NCBI GenBank assembly: GCA_023131895.1
Contig: JAGLYZ010000002.1
Location: 1 to 41,363 of the forward strand
DNA from: Candidatus Parcubacteria bacterium
Lineage (GTDB): Bacteria; Patescibacteriota; Minisyncoccia; Minisyncoccales; JAGMDC01
DNA: 41,363 nt
Reading direction: 5' to 3'
Shown here: piece after piece, positions 1-35,245 of the stretch
Layout of the letters: every line of letters starts with the position of its first letter
Position numbering within the stretch: position 1 is the first letter of the stretch
Notes under the pieces: generated by a model
Told to the model about the DNA's origin: nothing
Database searches by the model: none
What the model saw: the letters and a program-made list of their open reading frames with translations, nothing else
Made by a program: the position numbers and the translations under genes

Positions 1-290
1 CGTGAGACAGGTTGGTCCCTATCTACCGCAGGCGTCGAGTCTTGAGGAGGGTTGGTCCTTGTACGAGAGGATCGGACTGAACTAACCTCTGGTGTACCAG
101 TTGTTCCGCCAGGAGCATAGCTGGGTAGCTAAGTTGGGAACTGATAAGTGCTGAAAGCATCTAAGCACGAAGCAGGCTCCAAGATCAGGACTTTTAAATC
201 GGTCGAAGAACACGACCTTGATAGGACACAGGTGTAAGCGCCGTAAGGCGTTAAGCCAAGTGTTACTAATGATTTATTAAAATATTTCTT
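1..290 (+). rRNA. rrl: 23S rRNA, 3'-terminal ~290 nt (partial; gene continues upstream of the window)
   Basis: Domain VI signatures are present: CGTGAGACAGGTTGGTCCCTATCT at 1-24, the sarcin-ricin loop GTACGAGAGGATC at 61-73, and GTGCTGAAAGCATCTAAGCACGAAG at 148-172. The region is GC-rich relative to the rest of the window. The 3' end is approximate. Confidence 0.9.
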
Positions 291-338
291 GGCTAGTAAT
301 TAATGACCATAAACTTTATTTAGTATAGAGTTCTGCTA

Positions 339-446
339 TTTGGTGGTAATACCGGAGATGTTCCACCCGATTCCATATCGAACTCGGAAGTGAAATTCTT
401 CAGGGCCGATGATAGTCCTTTGGGCGAAAGTAGGTCGCCGCCAAAT
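339..446 (+). rRNA. rrf: 5S rRNA
   Basis: About 108 nt with typical 5S ends (TTTGGTGGTAATACC...GTCGCCGCCAAAT) and internal CCCGATTCCATATCGAACTCGGAAGTGAAA. It lies about 50 nt after the 23S end. An 18-bp perfect helix (326-343 pairing with 441-458) extends helix I by about 9 bp, which looks like a precursor processing stem. Confidence 0.85.
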
Positions 447-5156: not shown

Positions 5157-5266
5157 CTTTTAGGATACGTTCGCTCACCCCATCCGGCTCGCTCACTCTA
5201 TCCTCGCCTCGCTCTCTCGCTCCGCTCGAACCATGCCCGCTCGGCTCCGGGTGCTCATAAAAGTTA
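5154..5266. repeat. GC-rich, C/T-skewed intergenic element bounded by inverted repeats
   Basis: TAACTTTTA (5154-5162) is the inverse of TAAAAGTTA (5258-5266), and CACCC pairs with GGGTG further in. The ~70-nt core is pyrimidine-rich with reiterated CTCGCT/GCTCGC units and is far more GC-rich than the flanks. Confidence 0.5.
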
Positions 5267-5290
5267 CATTTCCCTCGCTAAAATAAAATT

Positions 5291-6547
5291 ATGCTTGACA
5301 TAAAATTTATCAGAGAAAATCCAGAAAAAGTTAAACAAGGTTGTCAAAAAAAGCAGGTCAAGGTTGATATTGATCAGATTTTGCTTTTGGATAAAAAAAG
5401 AAGAGGATTCCTTCAAAAAATAGATTCTTTACGTGCTGCCCAAAACAAGATTAGCGAAGGAGGAGGAAAAGATAAAGCCCAAATTGAGAAAGCAAAAGAA
5501 TTAAAAAATCAGATTAAAAAATTAGAAAAGGAATTTAAAAAAACTTATCAAGAGTTTAACGCTTTGATGCTCCAAGTTCCGAATTTACCTTTTGATGATG
5601 TGCCAGAAGGAAAAGATGAATCAGAAAATAAAGTTTTAAGAGAAGGGGGCAAGAAGCCGAAATTTGACTTTAAAAACAAGGATTATTTAGAAATTGCTCA
5701 AGATTTGGATTTAATTGATATCAAAAGAGCAGCCAAAGTTTCTGGTACAAGATTTGGTTATCTAAAAAACGAAGCAGTTTTGCTTGAGTTTGCATTAATA
5801 AATTTCGCTTTTGAGACATTAACAAAGGAGGGTTTTATTCCAATTATTCCTCCGGTGATGATAAAATCAGAAACAATGGAGGCAATGGGTTATATTGCCA
5901 CAAAAGAGGATTTAGCCGAAAGATATTTTTTTGAAAAAGATAATTTATTTTTAGTGGGAACAGCAGAGCAGTCAGTTGGACCAATGCATAAAGATGAGAT
6001 TTTTGAAGAAAATGACTTACCAAAAAGATATTTAGCTTTTTCAACTTGTTTCAGAGAAGAAGCAGGTTCTTATGGTAAGGATACCAAGGGAATACTTCGG
6101 GTTCATCAGTTTGATAAGGTTGAAATGTTTAGTTTTTGCAAACCTGACATTTCAAAGAGAGAACATGAATTTTTTCTGAGCTTAGAAGAAAAATTAATGA
6201 AGGCATTAAATCTTCCTTATCAGGTAGTCAAAAATTGTAGTGGTGATATGGCATTTCCTACTGCTATTCAATACGATATTGAAACATGGATTCCTTCTGA
6301 AGATAGATATAGAGAAACTCATTCTACTTCAAATTGCACAGATTTTCAGAGCAGACGATTAAATATCCGTTATCGCAATTCTAAAACTCAAAAATTAGAG
6401 TTTATTCATACTGTTAATGGTACTGCTTTTGCTATTGGAAGAATTTTAATTGCCATTTTAGAAAACTTCCAACAAAAAGATGGCTCTGTTTTAATCCCAA
6501 AAGTTTTACAGAAATACTTAGATTGTAAAATTATTTCTAAAAAATGA
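5291..6547 (+). CDS. serS: Seryl-tRNA synthetase
   Basis: MLDIKFIRENPE start, a long coiled-coil arm, and class II core motifs (FREEAGSYGKDTKGILRVHQFDKVE, TVNGTAFAIGRILIAILEN). Confidence 0.95.
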   Translation: MLDIKFIRENPEKVKQGCQKKQVKVDIDQILLLDKKRRGFLQKIDSLRAAQNKISEGGGKDKAQIEKAKELKNQIKKLEKEFKKTYQEFNALMLQVPNLPFDDVPEGKDESENKVLREGGKKPKFDFKNKDYLEIAQDLDLIDIKRAAKVSGTRFGYLKNEAVLLEFALINFAFETLTKEGFIPIIPPVMIKSETMEAMGYIATKEDLAERYFFEKDNLFLVGTAEQSVGPMHKDEIFEENDLPKRYLAFSTCFREEAGSYGKDTKGILRVHQFDKVEMFSFCKPDISKREHEFFLSLEEKLMKALNLPYQVVKNCSGDMAFPTAIQYDIETWIPSEDRYRETHSTSNCTDFQSRRLNIRYRNSKTQKLEFIHTVNGTAFAIGRILIAILENFQQKDGSVLIPKVLQKYLDCKIISKK

Positions 6548-7314
6548 AAACTTTAGTTATCCTTCACGGCTGGCAGAGTTCAAAAGAGAAATGGCAAACC
6601 GTAAAACAAGAACTCCAAAAACGCACCGAGAACGGTTCTCGGTGTGTTGAAATTAAGGTAATTATTCCTGATTTGCCGGGTTTTAAGAAAGAGACACAAT
6701 TAGACAGAGTTTGGGATTTAGATGATTATATTAAATGGTTAGAGAATTTTATTTCTGAAAATTCGAAAACCTCTTGCCCTGAGCTTGCCGAAGGGTTTTA
6801 TTTATTAGGTCACTCATTTGGCGGCAGAATGGCAATAAAATTCGCTGTCAAGCATCCAGAAAAACTAAAGGGCCTGATTTTAGTTTCTTCTGCCGGCATA
6901 AAACCAAAACAAAACATTTTCTACTTGACGTTTCTTGCGGTCGCAAAATTTGTCAAATCTATATTTTTAAAAATTCCTATATTGAAAAATTCTTTTCCCT
7001 TTTTTAGAAATATTTTTTATAAATATATTTTAAGAAAAACTGATTATTTAAAAGCAGAAAAATTGCCATATCTCCAAGAAACTTTTAAGAATATCATTAA
7101 AGAAGATTTAAGAGAGTATTTTTCTAAAATTAAAATCCCGACTTTAATTATCTGGGGCGATAAAGACAGAATGACCCTCTTAAAAGACGCTTATTTGATG
7201 AAAGAAAAAATAAAAGGTTCAGAATTAGAAATTATAAAAAATGTTGCCCACACTCCGCATTTAGAAAAACCAGAAATTTTAGCTCAAAAAATCATGAATT
7301 TCATTAAAAAATAA
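6544..7314 (+). CDS. Alpha/beta-fold hydrolase
   Basis: Nucleophile elbow GHSFGG (GxSxG), IWGDKDR, and a C-terminal AHTPHLE (catalytic His region). ATGA overlap with serS. Confidence 0.8.
   Translation: MKTLVILHGWQSSKEKWQTVKQELQKRTENGSRCVEIKVIIPDLPGFKKETQLDRVWDLDDYIKWLENFISENSKTSCPELAEGFYLLGHSFGGRMAIKFAVKHPEKLKGLILVSSAGIKPKQNIFYLTFLAVAKFVKSIFLKIPILKNSFPFFRNIFYKYILRKTDYLKAEKLPYLQETFKNIIKEDLREYFSKIKIPTLIIWGDKDRMTLLKDAYLMKEKIKGSELEIIKNVAHTPHLEKPEILAQKIMNFIKK
6624..6644. repeat. In-CDS perfect palindrome CACCGAGAAC-G-GTTCTCGGTG
   Basis: 10+1+10 nt perfect hairpin palindrome, about 62% GC, in-frame in the hydrolase gene (encodes TENGSRC). The 22-mer 6624-6645 is identical to 13917-13938. Confidence 0.9.
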
Positions 7315-8873: not shown

Positions 8874-9955
8874 ATAGTATGTTAAAAGTCAAAGAAATTA
8901 TTCAAAAAGAAATTTGGGAGGATTTTCTTTTAGGATGTGATGAAAAGACATTTCTGGATTCTTGGAATTGGGGAGAGTTTCAAAAAAAAATGGGCCAAAA
9001 AATTTGGCGCTTTGGAATTTACTTGTCCGCCGAAGCTTTAGCGAAGGAGGATGAAGTATCTAATCTCCTTACAGTAGCTTTGGTGATTAAAATTCAGGCA
9101 AAAAGAGGATCATTTTTGCTTGTGCCGCACGGACCCGTAATTAAGATTAATAAAGGACGGGCTTCTGTAATTACAGAAGCCCGTCCTTTGAAAGCTTTAT
9201 TAGACAAATTAAAAGAGATTGCCAAACAAGAAAAATGCAGTTTTATTAGGATAAGTCCGGTGTTTCAGAAAAATCAAGAAAATATTAAAGTTTTTAAAGA
9301 TTTAGGTTTTAGACAAGCGCCAATACATATGCATCCTGAAGCGAGCTGGAAATTAGATATTTCAGAGTCAGAACAAGAACTTTTAATGAATATGCGGAAA
9401 ACAACCCGTTATTTAATTAAACAGGCCCAAAAAAATAAAGATCTTGAAATAATTCAAAGCAGCAACATAAAAGATATTGAAATTTTTAACAAACTTTATC
9501 AAAAAGTGGTTAAATCCCAGCATTTTATCCCTTTTTCTTTAGATTATTTAAAGCAGGAGTTTTTGTCATTTCAGCAGGATAATCAAATATCTTTGTTTTT
9601 TGTAAAATATAATAAAGAAATAATTGCTTCAGCATTTGTGCTTTTTTGGTCAAAGATTGGTTTTTATCATCACGCGGCTTTATCTCCGAAATATCACAAA
9701 ATCCCGGCTGCATATCTTTTACAATGGGAAGCGATAAAAGAAGCAAAAAAGAGAGGATGTGTTTTATATGATTTTTGGGGCTATGTTAATCCAAAAGACC
9801 AGCCCAGGCATCCGTGGGCAGGGCCAACATTATTTAAAATGGGATTTGGAGGAAAAGCGTATGAATATGTCAAAACCCAGGATTTGGTTTTATCGCCGAA
9901 ATATTGGCTCACTTATATTATTGAAAAAATAAGAAAAACAAAACGCGGACTTTGA
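8870..9955 (+). CDS. FemAB-family peptidoglycan interpeptide-bridge aminoacyltransferase
   Basis: Typical FemX/FemAB N-terminus (FLDSWNWGEFQKKMGQKIW), MRKTTRYLIKQA, and a C-terminal PTLFKMGFGG. ATGA overlap with murF. Confidence 0.8.
   Translation: MNSMLKVKEIIQKEIWEDFLLGCDEKTFLDSWNWGEFQKKMGQKIWRFGIYLSAEALAKEDEVSNLLTVALVIKIQAKRGSFLLVPHGPVIKINKGRASVITEARPLKALLDKLKEIAKQEKCSFIRISPVFQKNQENIKVFKDLGFRQAPIHMHPEASWKLDISESEQELLMNMRKTTRYLIKQAQKNKDLEIIQSSNIKDIEIFNKLYQKVVKSQHFIPFSLDYLKQEFLSFQQDNQISLFFVKYNKEIIASAFVLFWSKIGFYHHAALSPKYHKIPAAYLLQWEAIKEAKKRGCVLYDFWGYVNPKDQPRHPWAGPTLFKMGFGGKAYEYVKTQDLVLSPKYWLTYIIEKIRKTKRGL
9152..9189. repeat. In-CDS 38-bp perfect palindrome
   Basis: AAAGGACGGGCTTCTGTAAT|TACAGAAGCCCGTCCTTT is exactly self-complementary, with a GC-rich outer stem. 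It is in-frame in the FemAB-like gene (encodes KGRASVITEARPL). Confidence 0.9.
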
Positions 9956-12587: not shown

Positions 12588-12710
12588 TCAGAATAAATTA
12601 GATAGTAAGTTTAAAATAAGACCAAAAGCTAATTCCCAAAATATTGAGAAAGCTATAACGCTGATAACAGCTATCAAAATAAGTAATAATAGTTTTTGTT
12701 TATTCATCAT
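12588..12710 (-). CDS. Possible 40-aa hydrophobic micro-protein between the two GT39 genes
   Basis: Manual translation gives MMNKQKLLLLILIAVISVIAFSIFWELAFGLILNLLSNLF*. The start overlaps the stop of the upstream GT39 gene (ATGATGAATAA). No Shine-Dalgarno site; it is too short for the ORF track. Confidence 0.3.
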   Translation of the reverse strand: MMNKQKLLLLILIAVISVIAFSIFWELAFGLILNLLSNLF

Positions 12711-14259
12711 TGATTTTATAAACCCAAACTGAATCCTCGTTTGCTAACTCTCCTTTAGGAAAAGCAGTTTGAAGCTCTTGAATTGTTTTTTCATTATTAT
12801 CCATCAAAACTATAACTGTCTGCCTTTTATCCGGTTTTATCGCGTTTAAATTATCTTGAAAGACATAGCCTGTCCTTATCTCTTTATTCTTTGTTTTTTC
12901 AATAAAAACAATAGTCTCAACAGGCAATGGAAGATGCGGGCCTGATTCATTTACAATAACATATTTTTGCGTTTCTTCTGAAACAGAATTTAAATACATT
13001 CCAATTTCTACGCATTCTTTTGAAAAGGATCTTTCTACTTCTGGATTTTTCCCCCAGAAAATAAAATATCTGTAATATTGTGTAAAGACAAAAGAAATTA
13101 CTAATAAAACAGAAGCTAGGATTATTAAATAATAAACCCAATCTTTCTTTTTATCTTTTAAAAGATTCTTAGATTTTCTATAAACAAACTCTCCTCCTAT
13201 ACCAACAAAGATAAAAGCGAAAGGAATAGCTCCAATGCATCTTAGAGAATGTGGGATGCCTTCATAGGTTAAGATGCCTGGAACCAGCATTATAAAAAAA
13301 CTAAAGACTAGAAATGAGAAAGGAAAAAATGATTTTTTTAGGATTTTTTTAAAGCTTAAAATCAAGCCGATTAAAAATAATATTCCCACTGGCCAGAATA
13401 AAACAGGGGAGCCGGAAATATTATGGCGCCAATTATAATCGCCCGCAATATTAAACATTGCTGAATGGATAATAAAGCTCTTTCCTAATTCCTTAATCGG
13501 CTCTGGTTGGGAAAAAATTGAAATTCCAGTAGTCCTGCTTACAAAATTTTCAGGGTTTTCAAGGAAATAAAATCCAATAGGCGCGGCAATAATAAAAGTA
13601 AAAAGTAAAAATGAAGAAGTAAAAACCAGGAATTCTTTTTGCAGGTTTTGCTTTCTGTAAATCAACCACCACAAAATAAGAATTACAGGGATAATTAGAA
13701 CAGCTAATCTAAAAGCAATATAAGTATGGAAGCCCAAGCCAAAGATTATGCCGGCAATTATAAAATAAGAGATCTTCTTTGTTCTAAAACCTTTAAATAA
13801 AAAATAAAAAGAAAAGGTTAGGACAAAAGGAACTAAAATAGCCCTAAAGCCGATATGAGAGAAATTAATATGCCATAAGCTTGTCGCTAAAAAGAAAGAA
13901 GCAAAAAGAGCAATACACCGAGAACGGTTCTCGGTGTATTGAGAAAACAATTCCTTTGTTAAAAGATAAAGGCCGAGAACAGTGAGAATGCCGAAAAAAG
14001 CAGAAACAACCTTAAATGACCAAATACTTATGCCAAAAACAGAAAAAGACAGAGCGATTAGATTAATGAATAATCCTTCTCTGCCATTGTTTTCCGGGTA
14101 AAATATTTTTCCAGGTTCAGTAATTGCTTGATTGGCGTTGATAGCTTCATCAGGATAAATTCCAGGCGGAATTGTCTCTATCTGCCATAACCGGAAAAAA
14201 ACAGCTAGGGCAATAATCAATAAAAGCAAAATTAAAAGTTTTGAACTTTTTGGCAACAT
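12700..14259 (-). CDS. GT39/ArnT-like glycosyltransferase (second copy)
   Basis: 519 aa and polytopic. The N-terminal loop PPGIYPDEAINANQA is characteristic of ArnT/GT39-family proteins. Confidence 0.8.
   Translation of the reverse strand: MLPKSSKLLILLLLIIALAVFFRLWQIETIPPGIYPDEAINANQAITEPGKIFYPENNGREGLFINLIALSFSVFGISIWSFKVVSAFFGILTVLGLYLLTKELFSQYTENRSRCIALFASFFLATSLWHINFSHIGFRAILVPFVLTFSFYFLFKGFRTKKISYFIIAGIIFGLGFHTYIAFRLAVLIIPVILILWWLIYRKQNLQKEFLVFTSSFLLFTFIIAAPIGFYFLENPENFVSRTTGISIFSQPEPIKELGKSFIIHSAMFNIAGDYNWRHNISGSPVLFWPVGILFLIGLILSFKKILKKSFFPFSFLVFSFFIMLVPGILTYEGIPHSLRCIGAIPFAFIFVGIGGEFVYRKSKNLLKDKKKDWVYYLIILASVLLVISFVFTQYYRYFIFWGKNPEVERSFSKECVEIGMYLNSVSEETQKYVIVNESGPHLPLPVETIVFIEKTKNKEIRTGYVFQDNLNAIKPDKRQTVIVLMDNNEKTIQELQTAFPKGELANEDSVWVYKINDE
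13911..13941. repeat. In-CDS 31-nt perfect palindrome CAATACACCGAGAAC-G-GTTCTCGGTGTATTG
   Basis: 15+1+15 perfect hairpin palindrome with the same core as 6624-6644. It is in-frame in the minus-strand GT39 gene (encodes YTENRSRCI). Confidence 0.9.
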
Positions 14260-15204: not shown

Positions 15205-15279
15205 GGGCGTGTGGCTCAGTGGTAGAGCGCATTCCTGATAAGAATGAGGTCGAAGGTCCGATTCCTTCCACGCCCACCA
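15205..15279 (+). tRNA. tRNA-Ile (anticodon GAT), CCA encoded
   Basis: Manual cloverleaf: acceptor GGGCGTG/CACGCCC, D arm GCTC..GAGC, anticodon stem CATTC/GAATG with loop CTGATAA, T arm GAAGG-TCCGATT-CCTTC, then discriminator A and CCA. Confidence 0.9.
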
Positions 15280-15289
15280 AAAATTTTAA

Positions 15290-15363
15290 GGGCCCGTAGT
15301 TCAGTTGGTTAGAATATCTCATTTGCAATGAGGAGATCAGCGGTTCGAATCCGCTCGGGTCCA
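15290..15363 (+). tRNA. tRNA-Ala (anticodon TGC), CCA not encoded
   Basis: Acceptor GGGCCCG/CGGGTCC contains the G3:U70 alanine identity pair. The anticodon loop is TTTGCAA and the T arm AGCGG-TTCGAAT-CCGCT is canonical. Confidence 0.85.
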
Positions 15364-18687: not shown

Positions 18688-18761
18688 GCGCCCATAGCTC
18701 AACTAGGTAGAGCAACGGCCTTTTAAGCCGGTGGTTGCAGGTCCGATTCCTGCTGGGCGCA
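18688..18761 (+). tRNA. tRNA-Lys (anticodon TTT), CCA not encoded
   Basis: Acceptor GCGCCCA/TGGGCGC, D arm GCTC..GAGC, anticodon loop CTTTTAA, T arm GCAGG-TCCGATT-CCTGC. Confidence 0.9.
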
Positions 18762-25828: not shown

Positions 25829-25932
25829 CGAAAACAAAATTTTTCAAATTCAGCCCCCCTTCGCCCTTTGGGCTTTGCCCTTCGGGCTTCGCCGCGCCCA
25901 AACCCCAGAATTTGAAAAATCTGTTTTCTTCG
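25829..25932. repeat. Intergenic inverted-repeat element, family copy C
   Basis: CGAAAACAAAATTTTTCAAATTCAG (25829-25853) is the imperfect inverse of CAGAATTTGAAAAATCTGTTTTCTTCG (25906-25932). The core is very GC-rich with small hairpins (GCCC-TTT-GGGC, GCCC-TTC-GGGC). The right arm carries TTGAAA-16-TATTAC just before rplI. Confidence 0.7.
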
Positions 25933-26391: not shown

Positions 26392-28011
26392 ATGCCAAGA
26401 CTTATTTTTATTGCCGGCGGTGTAATGTCAGGCATTGGCAAAGGGATAGCTACAGCATCAATAGGAAAAATTTTACAAAGTAAAGGATTTAGAGTAACAG
26501 CGGTTAAAATTGATCCATATATTAATATTGATGCGGGTACAATGAACCCTATTGAACATGGAGAGGTTTTTGTAACTGATGATGGCGTGGAATGCGATCA
26601 GGATATTGGAAATTACGAAAGATTTTTCAACGCAGATTTATCAACTATTAATTATATTACTACTGGCAGAGTTTATCAGGCAGTAATAAACAGAGAGAGA
26701 AATTTAGAATATGGAGGTAGATGTGTTGAAGTTGTCCCAGATATTCCCAATGAAGCCATTTCCAGAATATTAAAATCAGCCAAAAAGAACAAGGCTGATT
26801 TTGTTTTGGTTGAGATTGGAGGAACAGTAGGCGAGTACCAAAATATGTTGTTTTTAGAAGCAGCAAGATTGACAAAGCTTCGCTATCCAAAAAATGTTCT
26901 TTTTATTTTGGTAAGTTATTTGCCAATTCCAAAAATGATCGGCGAAATGAAAACAAAGCCAACACAGAACGCAGTAAGATTATTAAATGAGGCCGGCATA
27001 CAGCCAGATATTATTTTAGGCCGTTCCCAATTTCCATTAGATGAACCGAGGAAAAGAAAAATTTCAATTTTTTGCAATGTAAATATTAAAGATGTAATTT
27101 CTGCGCCTGATATTAAATCAATTTACGAGGTGCCAATGAATTTTGAAAAAGAGAAGTTAGGCAATCAGATTTTGAAAAAGTTTAATTTGAAGCCAAGAAA
27201 AAGTAATTTGGAAAAATGGGAGAAAATAGTAAAAATCATAAATAGAAAGAAAAAACCAGTTAAGATAGGAATAGTTGGCAAGTATTTTGAAACAGGGAAG
27301 TTTACGTTAATGGACTCTTATATTTCAGTAATTGAGGCAGTAAAGCATGCTTCGTGGTTTTATAACAGGGAGCCGGAGATTCATTGGATAGCAGCTGGAA
27401 GCTTTGAAAGAAATTCAAAATCTTTAAAAGAATTAAAAAAATATGACGGGATTATTGTTCCAGGAGGTTTTGGCAGTAGGGGAATAGAAGGTAAGATAAA
27501 AGCCATTGAGTTTTGCAGAAAAGAAAAAATCCCTTTTTTAGGGCTTTGTTTAGGAATGCAGTTAGCAGTAATTGAATTTGCGCGGAATGTCTGCGGTCTA
27601 AAAAAAGCAGGATCTACTGAATTTACATCTCATTGCCAAAAATCAATAATTGATGTAATGCCTGAACAAAAAGTTCTTTTGAAAGAAAAAAAATATGGCG
27701 GGACTATGCGGTTAGGCGCTTATAACTGCGAGCTAAAAACAGGCACTAAGAGCTGGAAGAGTTACAAGATGGTGAAATACATTTCTGAGCGCCATAGGCA
27801 CCGTTACGAGCTAAATAATGAGTTTAAGAACGTTTTAGAAAGCAACGGTATGCTTATGGCTGGTATAAATCCAGAAAAGGACTTGGTAGAAATTATAGAA
27901 TTAAAAAAACACCCTTTCTTTATCGGTGTGCAGTTTCATCCAGAATTTAAATCAAGATTTTTGAATCCCCATCCATTATTCAAAGAATTTATTAAGGCGT
28001 CTCTACATTGA
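26392..28011 (+). CDS. pyrG: CTP synthase
   Basis: [27 protein letters not shown], the glutaminase domain GLCLGMQ, and HRHRYE. The preferred start is ATG 26392 (MPRLIFI), 1 nt after the rplI stop. Confidence 0.95.
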
Positions 28012-28270
28012 CCTTTTTAACTATCCGCTGGCTTTTATCAAACTTTATTTTTCTTTTAGTAATAAACTTAACAATGCCTTCTTTAACAGCATAAAGGGTG
28101 TCATCGTTTCCTCGTCTGACATTTGTTCCAGGAAGAAACTTTGTTCCGCGCTGGCGAATAATAATACTGCCTGCATTTGCTTTCTGGCCGCTATAAAGCT
28201 TAACCCCTAAATATTTGGGCCTAGAATCTCTTCCTAATTTTGTTGCACCAGTTGCTTTTGTCTTAGACAT
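27992..28270 (-). CDS. rpmA: Ribosomal protein L27
   Basis: [20 protein letters not shown]...[16 protein letters not shown]. The 3' end overlaps the pyrG 3' end by 20 nt (convergent). Confidence 0.95.
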
Positions 28271-28327
28271 GTTCCTTCACTTCGTTCAGTCAAGTTAAAA
28301 ATTAAAAGTGAAAAATTAAAAATTAAC
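28271..28327 (-). promoter_or_regulatory. T-tract leader module upstream of rpmA
   Basis: The minus strand reads GTTAATTTTTAATTTTTCACTTTTAATTTTTAACTTGACTGAACGAAGTGAAGGAAC-ATG. It is near-identical to the lysS leader over about 35 nt. Confidence 0.45.
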
Positions 28328-28382
28328 TTTAAACTTTTAACTATGACTTTTAACTTTTAATTTTGAACTTTAAACTATCTTT

Positions 28383-28559
28383 ATGTTATCAAAATTATTT
28401 CAATTTGTCAAACAAAATAGAGAAGATATTATATTAGTTATTGGAGTTATTTTAATTTCTTTGTTTTCTTTTGCTATGGGCTATATCGTGGCTAAGCAAG
28501 AAAATAAAGAACCAATTCAGTTTGAAATGACTAATGACCAATTTCTAATTTCCAATTAA
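28383..28559 (+). CDS. Possible 58-aa single-TM protein
   Basis: Manual translation gives MLSKLFQFVKQNREDIILVIGVILISLFSFAMGYIVAKQENKEPIQFEMTNDQFLISN*. One clear TM helix; a TAAACT hexamer lies 6 nt upstream of the ATG. It falls below the ORF-track length cutoff. Confidence 0.4.
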   Translation: MLSKLFQFVKQNREDIILVIGVILISLFSFAMGYIVAKQENKEPIQFEMTNDQFLISN

Positions 28560-28572
28560 TTTATCGCTTTAT

Positions 28573-28702
28573 GAACCAAATTTTTCAAATTTTTACGGTT
28601 TGCTCGGATTCCAAATTTTCCTTGCGCTTTACCCTAAAGGGCTCCGACGCGTCTTCGGAAAATTCAGAATCCTCACTAACCTAATTTGAAAAATTTGTTT
28701 TC
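28573..28702. repeat. Intergenic inverted-repeat element, family copy D
   Basis: GAACCAAATTTTTCAAATT (28573-28591) is the inverse of AATTTGAAAAATTTGTTTTC (28683-28702). A nested inverted repeat pairs GGATTCCAAATTTTCC (28606-28621) with GGAAAATTCAGAATCC (28657-28672). The centre is GC-rich. Confidence 0.7.
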
Positions 28703-28725
28703 AGAGCAAGAATTATTAATTTTTT

Positions 28726-29658
28726 ATGAGAATCGCTATTGTCGGAGCAGGTATTTCTGGATTGTATCTGGCATGGAAGCTTTCGAAAAAAGGTCACAAA
28801 GTAAGTGTTTTTGAAAAAAGGAATAAAATTGGAAAGGAGGCCTGTTCAGGACTTTTCAGCCATAGAATACTTAATTTTATTCCAGAAAGCAGAAAACTAA
28901 TCCAAAACGAAATAAGAGAAGTATTAGTCCATTTTCCAAGAAAAACCGTAAGATTGGTTTTTAAGCAAAGTTTTTTTGCAATGGATCATTACAAATTAGA
29001 CAATATGGCTGCTGAATTAGCTAAGCATGCAGGCGCAGAGATTTTTTTAAATCATAAAGTAGACCATATTCCTCAAGAATTTGACAAAATAATTGGATGC
29101 GATGGTCCTAATTCCATTATTAGGAAAGAACTCAATCTTTCAGAACCGCAATTTTTTCTGTCTATCCAAGGATTTTTAGAAAAAAAAGATGATTCTAATT
29201 GTGTTGAAACTTGGGCAACTAATTCTGGTTTTATTTGGAAAATTCCTAGAGGAGAAACAATAGAATATGGTATAATAGAAGATATAAAAAAAGCAAAGAA
29301 TTATTTTGATAACTTTTTAAAAGAAAAGAAAGTTTATTTAATAAGAAAAAAAGCAGGAATAATTCCGCAGACATTCAAGCCAATTATTCCTAAAAATTCT
29401 AAAATCACTCTTTGCGGCGATGCCATTGGCCTTACCAAGCCCTGGTCAGGCGGGGGAGTAATATGGTCTTTGATATGCGCTGATCTCCTCTTGAAGAATT
29501 TCCCAGATTTTATAAAATATAAAAAGGAAGTCAATAAGTTTTTTCTTCCTAAAATTATTTTTTCAAAAATAGTAAAAAAAACAGTTTATTTTTCCGGAAG
29601 AAATTTTCCATGGCTTCTGCCAAAAGAAGTTAACATAGAAGGAGATTTTTTGTTTTAA
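28726..29658 (+). CDS. FAD-dependent oxidoreductase, geranylgeranyl-reductase-like
   Basis: N-terminal Rossmann motif IAIVGAGISGLYLAWKLSKKGHKVSVFEKR and a GGR-type GDAIGLTKPWSGGGV motif. Confidence 0.7.
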   Translation: MRIAIVGAGISGLYLAWKLSKKGHKVSVFEKRNKIGKEACSGLFSHRILNFIPESRKLIQNEIREVLVHFPRKTVRLVFKQSFFAMDHYKLDNMAAELAKHAGAEIFLNHKVDHIPQEFDKIIGCDGPNSIIRKELNLSEPQFFLSIQGFLEKKDDSNCVETWATNSGFIWKIPRGETIEYGIIEDIKKAKNYFDNFLKEKKVYLIRKKAGIIPQTFKPIIPKNSKITLCGDAIGLTKPWSGGGVIWSLICADLLLKNFPDFIKYKKEVNKFFLPKIIFSKIVKKTVYFSGRNFPWLLPKEVNIEGDFLF

Positions 29659-29670
29659 TCATTTAGTCAA

Positions 29671-30345
29671 ATGAAAAAGAAGACACCTCATCATTTAGGC
29701 ATTATTTTAGATGGCAATAGAAGATGGGCAAAAGAAAGGAACTTGCCTGTTTTTGAGGGTCATAAAAAGGGCAGGGAAAAGGTGAAAAAAATTATAAAGG
29801 CTTGTAAAAACAAAGGAATAAAAATTCTAACATTATTTGTTTTTTCTACTGAAAATTGGAAAAGACCAAAAAAAGAAGTTGATTATTTAATGGAACTGAT
29901 TAAAGGCATTATAGGTCTTAAAGAGCTTGACAAACAAGGAATTAAGGTTGTAGTAATTGGTCAGAAAGAGAAATTATCCAATGGCATTCAAAAGGTGATA
30001 GAGAATGCTGAAAAAATTACTAAGAACAACAAGGCAATGATTTTAAATATAGCCTTAAGCTACGGAGGCAGGGCGGAAATCGTTGAAGCAATAAAAAATA
30101 TAATTAAAAAGAAAATTTCTTTAGAAAAAATTGATGAAAATATAATTTCCAAAAATCTTTGGACATCCGACCTTGATTTAATTATCAGGACTGGCAAAGA
30201 GAAACGGATTTCTAATTTTTTAATCTGGCAGGCAGCCTATTCTGAAATTTTCTTTTTTGATAAATATTGGCCTGATTTTACTGAAAAGGATTTAGATAAA
30301 GCTATTAATGAATATTCTCGCCACCTTCGCCGCTTCGGGGAGTAA
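29671..30345 (+). CDS. uppS: Undecaprenyl-diphosphate synthase (cis-prenyltransferase)
   Basis: HLGIILDGNRRWAKERNL, FVFSTENWKRP, IRTGKEKRISNFLIWQAAYSE, and a C-terminal RRFG. Confidence 0.92.
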   Translation: MKKKTPHHLGIILDGNRRWAKERNLPVFEGHKKGREKVKKIIKACKNKGIKILTLFVFSTENWKRPKKEVDYLMELIKGIIGLKELDKQGIKVVVIGQKEKLSNGIQKVIENAEKITKNNKAMILNIALSYGGRAEIVEAIKNIIKKKISLEKIDENIISKNLWTSDLDLIIRTGKEKRISNFLIWQAAYSEIFFFDKYWPDFTEKDLDKAINEYSRHLRRFGE

Positions 30346-30408
30346 ATGTTTCATCACAAATCAGTACGATCGTTTTAATTTGTGACCGGGTTTAAAACGA
30401 AAAAAAGG

Positions 30409-30437
30409 GGCTCGTTTAAATCTTGATTTAAACGAGC
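30409..30437 (-). terminator. Strong hairpin terminator, best on the minus strand and possibly bidirectional
   Basis: 12-bp perfect stem GCTCGTTTAAAT / ATTTAAACGAGC with a 5-nt loop. On the minus strand it is followed by CCCTTTTTTTCG. Confidence 0.7.
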
Positions 30438-30445
30438 TTAACTCT

Positions 30446-30610
30446 TTATTTACAGCCTATTTTTTGTTCGTATTGCCACTGTTTCATCGTTCTTCCGAAA
30501 TACACACCGCGTTCTATTTCTGGATAATAGATTATGGTCATTTCTACCAAATAACCTATTTTCATAAGAAATTCTCCAAGATGCATCTTTAATTTAAAGA
30601 ACATTTTCAT
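30446..30610 (-). CDS. Orphan 54-aa protein with its own promoter, Shine-Dalgarno site and terminator
   Basis: MKMFFKLKMHLGEFLMKIGYLVEMTIIYYPEIERGVYFGRTMKQWQYEQKIGCK. AGGAGGTG lies 2 nt before the ATG at 30610. The track ORF (to 30658) would run through the Shine-Dalgarno site and promoter. Confidence 0.5.
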   Translation of the reverse strand: MKMFFKLKMHLGEFLMKIGYLVEMTIIYYPEIERGVYFGRTMKQWQYEQKIGCK

Positions 30611-30629
30611 TACACCTCCTATATTCAAA

Positions 30630-30658
30630 ATGATAACAGTAATTAATAAATTTGTCAA
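30630..30658 (-). promoter_or_regulatory. Sigma70 promoter TTGACA-17-TATCAT for the 54-aa ORF
   Basis: On the minus strand: TTGACA (30658-30653), a 17-nt spacer, and TATCAT (30635-30630). Confidence 0.55.
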
Positions 30659-30676
30659 ATTTTATATTGATTTACG

Positions 30677-30709
30677 AAAAAAACAGGGGATTTAACCTCT
30701 GTTTTTTTT
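30677..30709 (-). terminator. Hairpin flanked by A and T runs downstream of the recombinase gene
   Basis: AAAAAAACAGGGGATTTAACCTCTGTTTTTTTT. The 6-bp stem has a G.T pair on the plus strand, which becomes an A.C mismatch on the minus strand. T runs are present in both orientations. Confidence 0.45.
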
Positions 30710-30745
30710 ATTCTTTTAGAGGATGGTACTTCTTATTTTTATTAA

Positions 30746-31690: not shown

Positions 31691-31734
31691 AGCTAATAGC
31701 CATTAAGGTACATTATACGACACGATATATATTA

Positions 31735-32565: not shown

Positions 32566-34113
32566 TTAATTTTTGGAGAACAGTTCTCTGGCTTCTTTAA
32601 TTCTTTTAATAGACTTCTCTTTTCCTAGAATGTCAGCGACTTCAAAAGGCCCGGCAGACGCCTTTTTTCCTGTCAGAGCCACTCTTAATGGCCATAAAAG
32701 CTTTCCTCTATCCCCTGCCTTCCCTGCTTCAAACATTAAAATCTTTTCTAAGTTCTCTTTATTAAAATCTTTAGATTCTATTTTAGACAATATTTTCTCT
32801 AATTTGTCAAGAGTATCATTAACTTCTTTATCTGTCATATCCTTCCATTTTAACAAATCTTTATTATATTCTAATCTCTTCTTAAAAAAGAAATCCGTAA
32901 ATTCAGCAATCTCTGATAAATATCTTAATCTTTCATGGTATGCTTTTACGACTTTTATTAAATAATCGCAGCCAATGATTTCGCCTGTTTCTTTTATTTT
33001 AAACTCTGGTTTTTTTTCTTTGAATAATTCAAATTTTTGAGAACTGTTCTCCTTAGGAGAACAGTTCTCTATAGTTGATACCCATTGTTCTATTAAACCT
33101 GCTTTTATTAAATAAGGAATGCATAATTCAGCTAGCCTTTTATTTGATTTCTGACGGATGTAAAATCCGTTTAAATAGTCAAGCCGTTTGATGTTAAAAA
33201 TCGCGCCTCCTTTTTGAATTTTTTCTAATGAGAACTCTTTAATTAGTGAAGGCAAGACATAGATTTCTCTTTCTGTTCCAGGATTCCAGCCTAAAAATGC
33301 CATAAAATTGATTAAAGTTTCCTTAAGATAACCTTTTTCTTGATATTCTGTGATAGAGGAAGCGCCGTGCCTCTTGCTTAGTTTGCTTCTATCAGGACCC
33401 AATATCAGTGGTAAATGCGCGTATTTTGGATGAGAAAAACCTAATGCTTGTTGAATAAGAATTTGTTTTGGCGTATTAGAAATATGATCTTCTCCTCTAA
33501 TAACATTGGAAATTTCCATTTCAGAATCATCAATAGCTGCGGCAAAATTATAAAAAGGTTTTTTCAATCCTTTGCTAATAATAAAATCACCAATTAGTTT
33601 GGATATAAATTCAATTTTCCCTCTGATTAAATCATCAAAAACTATTTTTTTTGCTGTTTCCGGAACTTTAAACCTGATAACAAAAGGTTTTTTTTCTTTT
33701 AACTTCTTTTCAACTTCTTTTTTAGAAAGCCCCCTGCACTTGCCTGAATAATTAAGAGCTTGACCTACAGAAATTTGATATTCTTTTTGAGCTTCCAATT
33801 CTTCTTCTGTGCAGAAACAATAGTATGCTTTGTCTTCATCTAAAAGTTTTCTGATATATTTTTCATAAATATCTAATCTTTCGCTTTGTTTATAAAATTC
33901 ATCACATTTTAATCCAAGCCATTCCAGGCTTTCCATAATATTTTTTTCATATTCTGGTTTTGATCTTTCTAAATCAGTGTCTTCAATTCTTAAAATAAAC
34001 TGCCCCTGGTTTTGTTTGGCAAAAATATAATTAAAAAGAGCTGTCCTGGCAGTTCCAATATGCAAGAGTCCTGTAGGCGATGGAGCAATTCTTGTTCTAA
34101 TTTGATTAGTCAT
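32566..34113 (-). CDS. gltX: Glutamyl-tRNA synthetase
   Basis: RTRIAPSPTGLLHIGTARTALFNY (HIGH) and KLSKRHG (KMSKS). The preferred start is ATG 34113 (MTNQIRTR), 1 nt after the murG stop. The track ORF extends to 34149. Confidence 0.93.
   Translation of the reverse strand: MTNQIRTRIAPSPTGLLHIGTARTALFNYIFAKQNQGQFILRIEDTDLERSKPEYEKNIMESLEWLGLKCDEFYKQSERLDIYEKYIRKLLDEDKAYYCFCTEEELEAQKEYQISVGQALNYSGKCRGLSKKEVEKKLKEKKPFVIRFKVPETAKKIVFDDLIRGKIEFISKLIGDFIISKGLKKPFYNFAAAIDDSEMEISNVIRGEDHISNTPKQILIQQALGFSHPKYAHLPLILGPDRSKLSKRHGASSITEYQEKGYLKETLINFMAFLGWNPGTEREIYVLPSLIKEFSLEKIQKGGAIFNIKRLDYLNGFYIRQKSNKRLAELCIPYLIKAGLIEQWVSTIENCSPKENSSQKFELFKEKKPEFKIKETGEIIGCDYLIKVVKAYHERLRYLSEIAEFTDFFFKKRLEYNKDLLKWKDMTDKEVNDTLDKLEKILSKIESKDFNKENLEKILMFEAGKAGDRGKLLWPLRVALTGKKASAGPFEVADILGKEKSIKRIKEARELFSKN
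32576..32588. repeat. GAGAAC-A-GTTCTC palindrome unit at the gltX 3' end
   Basis: The 15-mer GGAGAACAGTTCTCT (32575-32589) is identical to 33056-33070. Confidence 0.85.
33039..33069. repeat. In-CDS 31-nt perfect palindrome made of two GAGAAC-N-GTTCTC units
   Basis: GAGAACTGTTCTCCT-T-AGGAGAACAGTTCTC (15+1+15). It is in-frame in gltX and encodes ENCSPKENSS. Confidence 0.9.
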
Positions 34114-34114
34114 T

Positions 34115-35245
34115 TTATTGTTTAAGGTATTCAACAATATATTCAGCAATTATATTTGCTGCTTTTGGCTTTGAGAATTTTTTTGCTTTTTCTGCCATTT
34201 CCTTCATTGCATGCCTTTGCGCAAACAAGTGTTTCAGTTTTTCTAAAAAGAAATGAGGCGTAAAATTGGATTCCTCAATAACTATAGAAGCGCCTGTTCC
34301 GGCAAAACAATAAGCGTTTTTTAATTGATGGTTTTGTGCTGATTCTGGCAAAGGAATTAAAATAGATGGTTTGCCCAAAGCAGCGATTTCAAAAATAGAG
34401 CCAGAGCCAGCCCTGGAGATAATAAGGTCAGAAGCCGCATAAGCATTTTTTAAAGTTTTTTCATCTAATACTGGAAAGACATGATAAAAATTTTCTAATC
34501 CCTTAGGAATAACGACTTTAGCTTCAGATTGAACTCCTTTGAAATTTTTCAAACCAACTTGATGAATTACTTCAAACTCTCTTAGAAAATCTGGCAGAAT
34601 TTGCAAGATTTTGTCATTAATCCTTTGAGCTCCTTGAGAGCCGCCTAGAATCAAAATAACTGGCTTTGTCCCGCTTAATTTTAACATCCTTTGCGCCTCT
34701 TTTTTATCTCCTTGCAGGATTTCAATTCTGATAGGGTTTCCAATAGAAATTAATTTTTCTTGCGGAAAAAATTCAGTTTTTTGGACAGGAAAAGAAACAA
34801 AAATTTCTAAGGAAAATTTAGTTAAAATTCGGTTGGCCAACCCAGCTGCAGTATCAGATTCATGCAGGAAGATTGGTACTCGCAAAAACCAGCCGGAAAA
34901 AACTGCTGGGATTGAGCCATATCCCCCTTTGCTGAAAATAATCTCAGGTGCAAGAGTAAAAATGTGCCAGAACGACTGGCAAATTCCAATAGGCGTTTTA
35001 AATAAAACATCTATTATATTATGGAAAAAACTTTTTATGCCTATATATCTTCTGACTTTTCCAGCTATTATTGTTTTAATCTTAATTCCTTCTTTAGAAA
35101 GCAAAGCAGAACCAAAATCATCTTTTGGCCCAATATAATGAAAAATCAATTCCTGATTATTATAGATTTTTTTAATTTCTCTTGTGATAGCGATAATTGG
35201 ATAAATATGGCCTCCAGTACCGCCGCCTGTGAATAAAATTTTCAT
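34115..35245 (-). CDS. murG: Lipid II synthase MurG (UDP-GlcNAc transferase)
   Basis: MKILFTGGGTGGHIYP start and the C-terminal GT-B motifs (ISRAGSGSIFEIAALGKPSILIP...QNHQLKNA). The track ORF extends to 35290, but ATG 35245 fits the family N-terminus. Confidence 0.92.
   Translation of the reverse strand: MKILFTGGGTGGHIYPIIAITREIKKIYNNQELIFHYIGPKDDFGSALLSKEGIKIKTIIAGKVRRYIGIKSFFHNIIDVLFKTPIGICQSFWHIFTLAPEIIFSKGGYGSIPAVFSGWFLRVPIFLHESDTAAGLANRILTKFSLEIFVSFPVQKTEFFPQEKLISIGNPIRIEILQGDKKEAQRMLKLSGTKPVILILGGSQGAQRINDKILQILPDFLREFEVIHQVGLKNFKGVQSEAKVVIPKGLENFYHVFPVLDEKTLKNAYAASDLIISRAGSGSIFEIAALGKPSILIPLPESAQNHQLKNAYCFAGTGASIVIEESNFTPHFFLEKLKHLFAQRHAMKEMAEKAKKFSKPKAANIIAEYIVEYLKQ

Follow-up and report, generated by a model that had tools for sequence, protein, structure and literature searches.

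Palindromes in the window and their host genes

The window, by which we mean the whole 41,363-nt stretch of DNA analysed here, carries perfect palindromes within genes of different function (Table 1). One of them, CAATACACCGAGAAC-G-GTTCTCGGTGTATTG, consists of two 15-nt arms with 100% complementarity around a single central base, as a preliminary description of this DNA had stated, and is located in the minus-strand gene of a GT39 glycosyltransferase, within the part that encodes a variable loop, at residues ~106-115. The predicted hairpin of this palindrome as single-stranded DNA has a free energy of -14.5 kcal/mol (z = -9.9 vs shuffles). Its inner 21 nt are found again in an alpha/beta hydrolase gene, and the core shared by the two genes, also noted earlier, is thus confirmed. 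The hydrolase copy is an in-frame insertion of eight codons (RTENGSRC), found in the window genome, L003, L002, and L004 only; ~35 orthologues lack it. The peptides previously read from the two copies, YTENRSRCI in the GT39 protein and TENGSRC in the hydrolase, are correct; their common E-N-x-S-R-C reading is present in both proteins but has no significance of its own, since it follows from both genes reading the palindrome in the same frame. Similarly, the central plus-strand base is G in both window copies, as described; however, this identity is not general, because in the sister genome (L002) the central base is A in both coding senses and the plus-strand bases are therefore opposite.

The glutamyl-tRNA synthetase gene gltX contains a REPIN-like inverted doublet, in which two cores with T and then A as their centres jointly form a 31-nt perfect palindrome that is read in frame as IENCSPKENSSQ. 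The GluRS region that holds the doublet is a hypervariable insert; the doublet itself is kept in the two closest relatives. At the site of the bare core near the 3' end of gltX, the GluRS proteins of relatives end in REQFS or RELFSSGEQFS. The 38-nt palindrome in the FemAB-family gene belongs to a different sequence family and represents the same phenomenon as the GT39 copy with another core; these Patescibacteria genomes contain long perfect palindromes of several unrelated families. An Rfam scan of the whole window identified rRNA and tRNAs only, with no match for the hairpins. The GC skew of the window switches at ~28-31 kb.

Table 1. Palindromic elements, their host genes, and core matches in the window.
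Feature	Position	Strand	Description
Host gene, alpha/beta hydrolase	6544..7314	+	256 aa
Second copy of the probable REP-type palindrome	6624..6644	.	perfect 10+1+10, CACCGAGAACGGTTCTCGGTG; 6622-6646 allowing one G.T pair
38-nt perfect palindrome, different sequence family	9152..9189	.	in frame in FemAB-family gene, KGRASVITEARPL
Host gene, PMT_2/GT39 (ArnT-like) glycosyltransferase	12700..14259	-	intact, 519 aa, Pfam PMT_2
Probable REP-type palindrome at the GT39 site	13911..13941	.	perfect 15+1+15; core GAGAAC-N-GTTCTC; in frame, read QYTENRSRCI
Host gene, glutamyl-tRNA synthetase (gltX)	32566..34149	-	
Bare 13-nt core copy, gltX 3' end	32576..32588	.	other frame, read RELFS
REPIN-like inverted doublet in gltX	33039..33069	.	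GAGAACTGTTCTC-CTTAG-GAGAACAGTTCTC; two cores
Core matches	6628, 13920, 32576, 33039, 33057		

Distribution and sequence of the repeat family

The 13-mer core GAGAACNGTTCTC (GAGAAC-N-GTTCTC) has five exact matches in the 41-kb window vs 0.06 expected, and thus copies beyond those in the GT39 and hydrolase genes do exist; a 23-mer pattern has two window matches vs 0.00 expected. A chance origin of the repeat shared by the GT39 and hydrolase genes is excluded. Four further core copies were identified in 20.7 kb around a transposase-like gene attributed to the window's organism (see the next section), and the copy counts for the window genome, which cover ~81 kb of it, correspond to ~1 core per 8-9 kb. 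In 1.28 Mb of related genomes, GAGAAC-N-GTTCTC tops all 6+1+6 palindromes (16 observed vs 0.05 expected, 9 genomes). A metagenome scan revealed the core in at least 120 stretches, mostly on AT-rich contigs, with arms of up to 20 nt; identical 29-31-nt units, AACTATTCCGAGAACNGTTCTCGGAATAGTT, occur on seven contigs with unrelated flanks, and further inverted doublets were found at L022, L083, L101, and L143. The centre of the family, (C)CGAGAAC-N-GTTCTCG(G), is conserved; the outer arms are lineage-specific yet still complementary, and variants with an asymmetric 5-nt loop (GAGG-CCCGT-CCTC, GAGA-TCGTT-TCTC) occur as well. Intact copies are perfect Watson-Crick palindromes in which G.T pairs are hardly used; a few such pairs occur in decayed copies, and no clear enrichment of them was observed at the palindrome boundaries. 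An assembly artefact was rejected, as the same palindromes are present in independent assemblies and species. Searches of literature full text with the exact 13-mers gave irrelevant matches only.

The preliminary description had taken the shared segment for a DNA-level repeat rather than the outcome of convergent protein evolution, and the distribution of the family bears this out. Elsewhere, the copies are distributed over the three reading frames (10/13/8), with core peptides such as RE[LQ]FS and PRTVLG; no ORF covers 42 of the 94 copies from metagenomes; and the repeat in the GT39 and hydrolase genes uses rare codons (GAG 24%, AAC 24%, CGT 8%, CGG 5%, ACC 14%, and TAC 19%). The combination of a multi-copy core, rare codons, varied frames, and intergenic copies, together with the eight-residue insertion that distinguishes the hydrolase from its orthologues, points to a DNA repeat and not a protein motif. 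Within the window's organism, the GT39 copy and at least five others are located in frame inside ORFs rather than outside genes. Selection in both enzymes for a functional peptide E-N-x-S-R, which contains an N-x-S glycosylation sequon, would account for the presence of ENxSR in many GT39 orthologues and for its retention at L017 and L045, where the palindrome has decayed; however, besides the rare codons and alternative readings, the middle residue (R/S/G/C) is always encoded by an NGT codon, the segment is missing from most orthologues, and the hosts are as disparate as a membrane enzyme, a soluble hydrolase, and GluRS, so that the probability of this explanation is close to nil.

Comparison of GT39 orthologues demonstrates that some have no insert in the loop (KELFNEKIALL) and others have either the ENxSR palindrome or different repeats there, and that the loop is 6-7 codons longer in the window protein than in the shortest orthologues; the segment is thus far from universal among GT39 proteins. 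The orthologous site holds a palindrome in eight other genomes with covarying arms: seven of the 14 stem pairs have changes on both sides, 88% of the alignment cells are paired vs 34-51% in slid controls, and the observed covariation was reached by none of 500 shuffles. Variation is concentrated in the central 3 nt, which is the pattern of a hairpin loop. The palindrome-bearing species have GT39 proteins that are only ~50-85% identical, and their arms differ while complementarity is kept, which does not support the recent copying suggested by the preliminary description. As judged from the occupancy of orthologous sites in several species and the compensatory changes in the arms, the insertions are old, and the GT39 copy may therefore be immobile now.

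A host-selected mRNA hairpin, acting as a terminator or attenuator, an RNase site, or a stabiliser, with an incidental link to the transposase, was also considered. In a simple scan, the GT39 copy is terminator-like on the minus (sense) strand, where it is followed by CUCUUUUUG; many intergenic copies have A-run and T-run outer arms and resemble bidirectional terminators; a few G.T pairs are present in decayed copies; and REPs elsewhere affect termination and mRNA stability (PMC3733652). However, the GT39 copy is located at ~codon 110 of a conserved 519-aa ORF, and a terminator at this position would be harmful. Furthermore, a U tract is missing from the hydrolase and gltX copies, intact copies are strictly Watson-Crick, the same element occurs in either orientation and any frame, and no Rfam family matches it. 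Since the mRNA hairpin also leaves the transposase-flanking arrangement of the repeats unexplained, we consider it unlikely.

RAYT-like transposase gene flanked by the repeats

The sequence-specific mechanism proposed in the preliminary description is supported by a Y1/HUH transposase-like gene that has palindromes with the core or a close variant on both sides in all 11 loci examined (L022, L082, L083, L098, L171, L199, L207, L211, L213, L214, and L215). The flanking palindromes are located 3-35 nt from the start and stop of the Y1_Tnp gene; those of L082 and L215 are close core variants, and the asymmetric loop in L215 reveals that the two flanking copies are inverted. In most of these loci, one palindrome is also present inside the gene, in frame, at ~residue 56-63, and its frame differs between species. 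The encoded protein of ~240 aa has a C-terminal extension and visible HUH and Y motifs. Pfam Y1_Tnp matches the family loci with 32-49 bits (cut-off 23), and the top NCBIfam match is the REP-associated tyrosine transposase, with 40-52 bits, which is below its curated cut-off of 80 bits. A Foldseek search with the predicted structure gave 4ER8, the E. coli RAYT bound to a REP hairpin, as the top match (E = 6.4e-5), followed by IS608 TnpA and ISDra2 TnpA. A sequence search of P0313, the family member described below, against PDB gave no match, and the family profile search gave only a marginal one, to ISDra2 TnpA (E = 0.014). Many RAYT homologues come from contigs 1-2 kb in length, and two homologues, P0277 and P0309, share a contig of 271,219 bp.

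The RAYT-like protein P0313 (240 aa) is encoded on a 329,936-bp contig, which is equal in length to the contig with the window's GT39 and GluRS and is found in the same samples; the window's organism thus very probably encodes it, the genome assignment being inferred. A syntenic gene, whose protein is 77% identical to P0313, is found in the sister genome, where it shares a contig with the GT39 locus. There, the flanking and internal repeats of the RAYT-like gene, CACTACGAGAAC-N-GTTCTCGTAGTG, have the arms of the GT39 and hydrolase copies of that genome, whereas in the window genome the RAYT flanks (GTCCGAGAAC, TGCCGAGAAC, and CATCGAGGAC) resemble the GT39 and hydrolase copies (CACCGAGAAC) in the core but not in the outer arms. 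The gene conversion envisaged in the preliminary description is in line with the homogenisation that we observed between copies inside one genome. In L003, an R-to-Q change is present in both copies, encoded by CAA in GT39 and by CAG in the hydrolase gene.

The flanks of 127 distinct copies, which the preliminary description had proposed to compare, contain neither a target-site duplication above chance (k=2, 10 vs 8.6; k=3, 4 vs 2.2) nor a consensus beyond AT-richness, and the absence of target-site duplications is expected for Y1 transposases. The window copies are symmetric and have no end tag of the GTAG or CGTC kind, the tetranucleotides that characterise the two REP superfamilies described so far; in L002-type arms, GTAG is present solely as a part of the stem.

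Two further explanations have to account for this arrangement. The first is that the palindrome is a double-stranded DNA site for a dimeric protein, for example a nucleoid or segregation factor (in the manner of parS, NBS, or matS), or an uptake signal spread by molecular drive. With its 13 bp and free centre, the palindrome is similar to matS-type sites, intragenic copies occupy conserved positions, the lineage-specific "dialects" around a conserved core recall uptake sequences, and the window contains the GC-skew switch mentioned above. On the other hand, perfect complementarity of 15-20 nt per arm with variable sequence extends far past a protein footprint, the variation in the central 3 nt and the asymmetric 5-nt-loop variants fit a hairpin, known uptake sequences are not themselves palindromes, and the tight REP-gene-REP layout around a Y1 transposase is left unexplained, which makes such a site very improbable. 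A LexA/Cheo-box or a parS/matS-type site was rejected on account of wrong spacing and too long arms.

The second explanation, to which we assign an equally small probability, is a purely mutational origin, in which template switching (quasi-palindrome correction) in repair-poor genomes would create and perfect palindromes with no dedicated enzyme or mobility involved. It agrees with the several unrelated palindrome families of these genomes and with the GT39-site arms, which reach into ancestral coding sequence (ATTG of Ile-Ala), and templated correction would imitate covariation. However, it fails to explain why one core recurs at many unrelated loci and in many genomes, why identical 29-31-nt units have unrelated flanks, and why the arms at the RAYT flanks and in distant genes are identical. 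Templated correction may nevertheless contribute to the perfect arms.

Proposed mechanism and significance

Taken together, these data suggest that the palindrome is likely a REP-type element belonging to a REP-RAYT system of Patescibacteria. The biochemistry of the E. coli TnpA-REP and of IS200/IS605 transposases provides the basis for its proposed action. By analogy with these enzymes, the repeat would fold into a hairpin on single-stranded DNA, and the RAYT would bind this hairpin, cut and rejoin it, and thereby copy or replace repeats with no target-site duplication; a recognition that requires the hairpin would also maintain palindromy. In genomes nearly devoid of spacer DNA, the surviving copies would be those at gene ends or those inserted in frame, free of stop codons, in tolerant loops, where each would add ~7-8 residues to its protein. 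The copies within one genome could then be homogenised through re-copying or gene conversion.

We tentatively consider a further possibility, which we regard as rather doubtful, that an unusual type of REP-RAYT partnership, ancient and vertically inherited, exists in Patescibacteria. The perfectly symmetric, untagged hairpins may point to it, as may the copies that have persisted in frame in housekeeping genes, at identical codon positions, in deeply diverged lineages. Arms repeatedly rewritten to match the flanks of the genome's own RAYT gene would be a sign of in-situ replacement or conversion by the RAYT rather than of new insertion, and the conserved repeat inside the RAYT ORF could be a candidate autoregulatory site. 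If such a partnership exists, it would provide a compact natural system for the co-evolution of a domesticated transposase with its repeats and a general source of protein loop insertions in ultra-small bacteria.

The likely REP-type origin implies that odd short peptide inserts in Patescibacteria proteins (ENxSR, RE[LQ]FS, and PRTVLG) are translated hairpin repeats rather than functional motifs, with consequences for annotation and for inference from alignments; repeats of this kind also break assemblies. It would extend the REP-RAYT association to candidate-phyla-radiation bacteria, in whose genomes, with almost no intergenic space, the repeats persist within genes. The covarying copies at orthologous sites and the genome-specific arms constitute clean comparative data on whether RAYTs rewrite resident repeats.

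Comparison with known systems

Intragenic REPs and Rickettsia palindromic elements (RPEs) are found in frame in functional genes, including those of tRNA synthetases (PMC3733652). The copies described here are likewise inserted in frame and add a short peptide in a tolerant region. They differ from RPEs in size, sequence, and host, the RPE-1 type being ~100-150 bp long, whereas the present repeats are 21-31 nt and RAYT-associated; to our knowledge, RPE-1 type elements have no dedicated transposase.

Mobile G+C-rich palindromic clusters occur in the mitochondrial DNA of yeast and fungi, and palindromes within coding sequence are described for Nematomorpha mitochondria (PMC6649704). The mitochondrial and Patescibacteria elements are alike as relatively GC-rich hairpins in AT-rich compact genomes, some of them located in frame in coding genes and kept perfect, possibly through conversion. 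The genomes and sequences differ, and we know of no Y1 transposase for the mitochondrial palindromes of either yeast and fungi or Nematomorpha.

Miniature elements of the MITE type (50-500 bp, with terminal inverted repeats and a target-site duplication) differ from our unit of 21-31 nt, for which target-site duplications are at the chance level. Unlike the DUS/USS uptake sequences, which are non-palindromic 9-12-mers at ~1/kb, every copy of the present repeat is palindromic, with long variable arms, at ~1 per 8-9 kb. IS200/IS605 transposases, which recognise element-end hairpins on single-stranded DNA, share the enzyme fold and motifs (HUH and the catalytic Tyr) with the RAYT-like protein; however, in our case the multi-copy part is a bare hairpin, and the transposase gene is syntenic in two sister genomes.

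The REP/REPIN and RAYT combination ("REPtron") is known in Escherichia, Pseudomonas, and Stenotrophomonas (PMC5581495); among the literature matches listed, none links RAYTs with Patescibacteria or CPR. The present repeats resemble this system as 20-40-nt multi-copy palindromes with a species-specific sequence and the capacity to form stem-loops, with a Y1/HUH gene flanked by repeats, inverted doublets, conserved synteny of this gene in two sister genomes, some copies at gene 3' ends, and no target-site duplication. In contrast to most described REPs, the Patescibacteria palindromes are perfect and symmetric and carry no GTAG or CGTC end tag; many copies are in frame within essential genes; most of the RAYT genes examined hold a conserved internal copy; and the ~240-aa protein has a C-terminal extension, scores below the NCBIfam cut-off for RAYTs, and belongs to a different host group, the Patescibacteria. 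The GT39 palindrome is likely a known kind of selfish DNA that, among the literature matches listed, had no earlier record in this lineage; in-frame intragenic copies of such DNA have been reported elsewhere.

Palindrome Copies and Their Host Genes

The window belongs to a Patescibacteria MAG of the Minisyncoccales/Parcubacteria type with ~32% G+C. The preliminary description of a perfect 31-nt palindrome in the GT39 gene, sharing its core with a copy in a hydrolase gene, was borne out by the pairing of both elements (see the table), the hydrolase copy being the inner 21 nt of the GT39 palindrome. The 23-mer pattern has two matches in the window versus 0.00 expected, and the 13-mer core GAGAACNGTTCTC has five (at 6628, 13920, 32576, 33039, and 33057) versus 0.06 expected; a chance origin is excluded. 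As single-stranded DNA, the GT39 element folds with -14.5 kcal/mol (z = -9.9). The doublet in gltX, the glutamyl-tRNA synthetase (GluRS) gene, occupies a hypervariable insert region of the protein. A simple scan marked the sense strand of the GT39 copy, located ~110 codons into its ORF, as resembling an intrinsic terminator, since CTCTTTTTG / CTCTTTTTGC comes right after the repeat, and a transcriptional side effect is possible.

Repeat copies and other features in the window (locations without prefix), its organism (L202, L205) and related genomes (L002, sister genome; L003 and L004, further closest relatives)
Feature	Location	Strand	Description
GT39 copy	13911-13941		CAATACACCGAGAAC-G-GTTCTCGGTGTATTG, perfect 15+1+15 palindrome, read as QYTENRSRCI
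Host PMT_2/GT39 glycosyltransferase ORF	12700-14259	minus	intact, 519 aa
Hydrolase copy	6624-6644		perfect 10+1+10 palindrome, read as TENGSRC
Host alpha/beta-hydrolase ORF	6544-7314	plus	
gltX doublet	33039-33069		two cores, centres T and A, jointly a 31-nt palindrome
GT39-site palindrome, L002			CAACACTACGAGAAC-A-GTTCTCGTAGTGTTG
GT39-site palindrome, L003			CAATACATTGAGAAC-C-GTTCTCAATGTATTG
GT39-site palindrome, L034			CAATTTTCCGAGAA-ACG-TTCTCGGAAAATTG
GT39-site palindrome, L016			ATGCCGAGAA-GTG-TTCTCGGCAT
GT39-site palindrome, L027			TACTACGAGG-CCCGT-CCTCGTAGTA
GT39-site palindrome, L005 and L008			both perfect
GT39-site palindrome, L013			one G.T pair
RAYT upstream repeat, L002			AACACTACGAGAACAGTTCTCGTAGTG
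RAYT internal repeat, L002			CACTACGAGAACAGTTCTCGTAGTG
RAYT downstream repeat, L002			ACTACGAGAACTGTTCTCGTAGT
GT39 copy, L002			CAACACTACGAGAACAGTTCTCGTAGTGTTG
Hydrolase copy, L002			AACACTACGAGGACTGTCCTCGTAGTGTT
FemAB-family palindrome	9152-9189		38-nt, perfect, AAAGGACGGGCTTCTGTAAT-ATTACAGAAGCCCGTCCTTT, in frame in variable loop (KGRASVITEARPL)
29-nt palindrome in MurC-like gene	L205:4742-4770		AAAATACACAGGTCAGACCTGTGTATTTT; ~5 kb past right end of window
29-nt palindrome in FemAB gene of another species	L004:11323-11351		identical; frame differs
Palindrome near 3' end of MnmA-like gene	L202:4185-4220		36-nt, perfect; ~5 kb left of window
Hairpin region	30354-30385		similar to hairpins downstream of L202 palindrome
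Intergenic block, AspS-like to SerS genes	5163-5261		GC-rich
Hydrolase segment	6770-6796		short, GC-rich, in frame, SCPELAEG
FemAB segment	9027-9050		short, GC-rich, in frame, SAEALAKED, 10-aa insertion
GC-rich stretch	25848-25914		67 nt, mostly between ORFs; 24 nt exact in L002
AT-rich inverted repeats	28292-28376		
Tyrosine-recombinase ORF	30746-31690		Phage_integrase Pfam
Zn_Ribbon_TF/TFIIB ORF	L205:2492-3415		307 aa, on DAOVNT010000003.1
3' end of 23S rRNA gene, then 5S rRNA	1-446		
Three tRNA genes	15205-15363 and 18688-18761		

The Repeat Is a Nucleic-Acid Feature

The GT39 loop of orthologues often reads Y-x-E-N-[R/S/G/C]-S-R-x-I, with a middle residue encoded every time by an NGT codon, whose N corresponds to the unpaired base at the palindrome centre. 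The codons of the palindrome are rare in the window genome (GAG 24%, AAC 24%, CGT 8%, CGG 5%, ACC 14%, and TAC 19%). A scan of metagenome contigs for CCGAGAACNGTTCTCGG gave at least 120 stretches, and 94 distinct copies in AT-rich contigs were analysed. Among the matches listed, 31 of the 94 copies lie clearly within long ORFs, in all three frames (10, 13, and 8 copies), and translate as ENxSR, RE[LQPR]FS, or PRTVLG; another 42 are not covered by any ORF, and in many of these the outer arms are an A-run and a T-run that resemble a bidirectional terminator. A peptide motif as the explanation of the repeat is ruled out by the rare codons, the use of three frames, and the ORF-free copies, and the same observations uphold the earlier rejection of convergent protein evolution. 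The palindrome is a feature of the nucleic acid.

The core GAGAAC-N-GTTCTC is the commonest of all 6+1+6 palindromes in 1.28 Mb of related genomes, with 16 occurrences in nine genomes versus 0.05 expected, followed by the GAGGCC, GAGGAC, and GAGACC cores. Identical 29-31-nt units recur in unrelated contexts; for instance, AACTATTCCGAGAACNGTTCTCGGAATAGTT is found on seven contigs, the similarity between which ends at the palindrome ends. Inverted doublets such as that in gltX also belong to the family. The flanks proposed for inspection in the preliminary description yielded neither a target-site duplication nor a flank consensus in 127 copies.

Insertion Sites and Their Age

In the hydrolase, RTENGSRC is an eight-residue insertion relative to ~35 orthologues, and beyond the window genome it is carried only by L003, L002, and L004, the three genomes closest to it. 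In the GT39 loop, the minimal form KELFNEKIALL is found in many orthologues, and a palindrome in a subset. Unrelated AT-rich repeat-like inserts (QVSGFRFQVSRN, RITNYELRITNN, KTIKNQQLTINNEL, and similar) occupy this loop in seven loci (L006, L007, L011, L014, L021, L024, and L049), and the loop is a hot spot for small repeats in general.

Palindromes with different arms occur at exactly the GT39 site in eight other species. The palindrome has decayed by drift to A/T codons in L017, L045, L004, and L012; despite this decay, the peptide is kept in the first two, and it is changed as well in the latter two. In a 14-sequence alignment of the site, both partners have changed in seven of the 14 stem pairs, pairing holds in 88% of the cells versus 34-51% in slid controls, and the observed covariation was matched by none of 500 shuffles. 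The hairpin has therefore been maintained while the host GT39 proteins diverged to only 50-85% identity, and the recent copying suggested in the preliminary description is not borne out. The alignments indicate that the insertions sit in tolerant loops and are old. The repeats constitute a multi-copy hairpin family, inserted in frame, whose stem is maintained by compensatory change.

A RAYT-Like Gene Bracketed by the Repeats

[quoted passage not shown] All six scanned ORFs match Pfam Y1_Tnp (32-49 bits versus a cut-off of 23); their best NCBIfam match is the REP-associated tyrosine transposase model NF047646, at 40-52 bits, below its equivalog cut-off of 80, and the IS200 model gives only 18 bits. 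For P0313, the RAYT-like protein assigned to the window's organism, the AlphaFold model (pLDDT 70, pTM 0.70) has as its best PDB match 4ER8 (E = 6.4e-5), a complex of the E. coli RAYT with a REP hairpin; the IS608 and ISDra2 TnpA proteins rank next. The family comprises 1616 homologues at E <= 1e-10, named 'transposase' by the sources, in MAGs of Nealsonbacteria, Parcubacteria, Paceibacteria, and Minisyncoccales; many are on 1-2 kb contigs, as expected for repeat-bracketed genes.

All 11 RAYT loci examined (L022, L082, L083, L098, L171, L199, L207, L211, L213, L214, and L215) share one layout, with one family palindrome upstream of the start codon, at a distance of 8-35 nt, and a second 3-18 nt past the stop; those flanking the gene in L082 and L215 are close variants of the core. 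The L215 repeat has an asymmetric loop (TCGTT versus AACGA), which reveals that the copies on either side of the gene are in inverted orientation, like those of described REPtrons. Most of the 11 loci have a third, in-frame copy at about residues 56-63. Five orthologues keep this internal repeat, with indels in its flanks; the reading frame varies, giving PRTVLG in the window genome and ENSSRS in L002. In the P0313 model the repeat lies within a low-confidence loop.

Genome-Specific Arms

P0313 is encoded on a 329,936-bp contig, equal in length to the one bearing the window's GT39 and GluRS and from the same samples, and very probably belongs to the window's organism. Its sister-genome counterpart P0358, 77% identical, lies on the contig of the L002 GT39 locus in a syntenic position. 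The arms are genome-specific: CACTACGAG..CTCGTAGTG are common to all five sister-genome copies, and CACCGAGAAC..GTTCTCGGTG occur in the GT39 and hydrolase copies of the window genome alike. By parsimony across the relatives, arms would have been converted twice, independently: the GT39 copy of the window lineage went from TAC-type to ACC-type, and the L002 hydrolase copy from ACC-type to TAC-type. These changes point to a homogenisation of copies, whether through re-copying or through gene conversion. The earlier suggestion of gene conversion agrees with the arms within genomes; the agreement is looser in the window genome, where the repeats flanking the RAYT gene have the core of the GT39 copy and different outer arms.

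Other Repeats and Features Nearby

The FemAB palindrome differs from the GAGAAC family in its core, and other repeats occur in the same loop of orthologues. The palindrome AAAATACACAGGTCAGACCTGTGTATTTT, present in a shorter form in L003, appears to represent a second family of mobile hairpins. The L202 palindrome consists of two 17-nt palindromes, AGGAAGTC-N-GACTTCCT, with two more hairpins (TCACAAA...TTTGTGA) just downstream. The hydrolase segment SCPELAEG recurs in L004, L002, and L012, and 21 nt of the FemAB segment have an exact copy in L130, an unrelated metagenome contig; both probably represent further small repeat families. A repeat of at least 150 nt with a 44-nt double palindrome, ACCGAGAACTGTTCTCGGCAAT-ATTGCCGAGAACAGTTCTCGGT, adjoining CGTCATTGCGAGGAGTGAAGCGACGAAGCAATC, lies at the ends of many metagenome contigs, in L101, L134, L141, L142, L151, L168, L174-L176, L198, and L200, and is therefore a multi-copy element that breaks assemblies.

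Within the AspS-SerS block, a stretch of 67 nt (~5201-5267) shares 88-91% identity with the distant genomes L005 and L013. This is much higher than conservation at the protein level and suggests a structured RNA that is not annotated; Rfam gave no match to the block even with E <= 1. The region ~28000-31700, where the cumulative GC skew has its peak and genes change from the plus to the minus strand, also contains the AT-rich inverted repeats and the tyrosine-recombinase ORF, and may be a replication terminus or dif region. The L205 ORF with precomputed Pfam matches to Zn_Ribbon_TF and TFIIB is unusual for a bacterial genome.

Proposed Mechanism and Comparison with Known Systems

By analogy with E. 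coli TnpA-REP and the IS200/IS605 enzymes, we propose that the repeat would fold on single-stranded DNA, where the Y1/HUH enzyme would recognise the hairpin and cut and rejoin it, leaving no target-site duplication. In a genome whose spacers are minimal, a copy would survive only at the end of a gene or, in frame, within a tolerant loop.

Known RAYTs are single-copy, vertically inherited, and associated with REPs arranged as doublets (PMC5581495), and REPs have also been described inside genes, those for tRNA synthetases among them, as have the in-frame Rickettsia palindromic elements (PMC3733652). Among the matches listed, a literature search pairing RAYT with Patescibacteria returned no work combining both. 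The REP-RAYT kind of system is already known, and the window's lineage probably has a new member: its palindromes, unlike described REPs, are perfectly symmetric, lack a GTAG or CGTC tag, and include a high share of intragenic copies; a copy is also kept within the RAYT gene itself, and Patescibacteria are a new host lineage.
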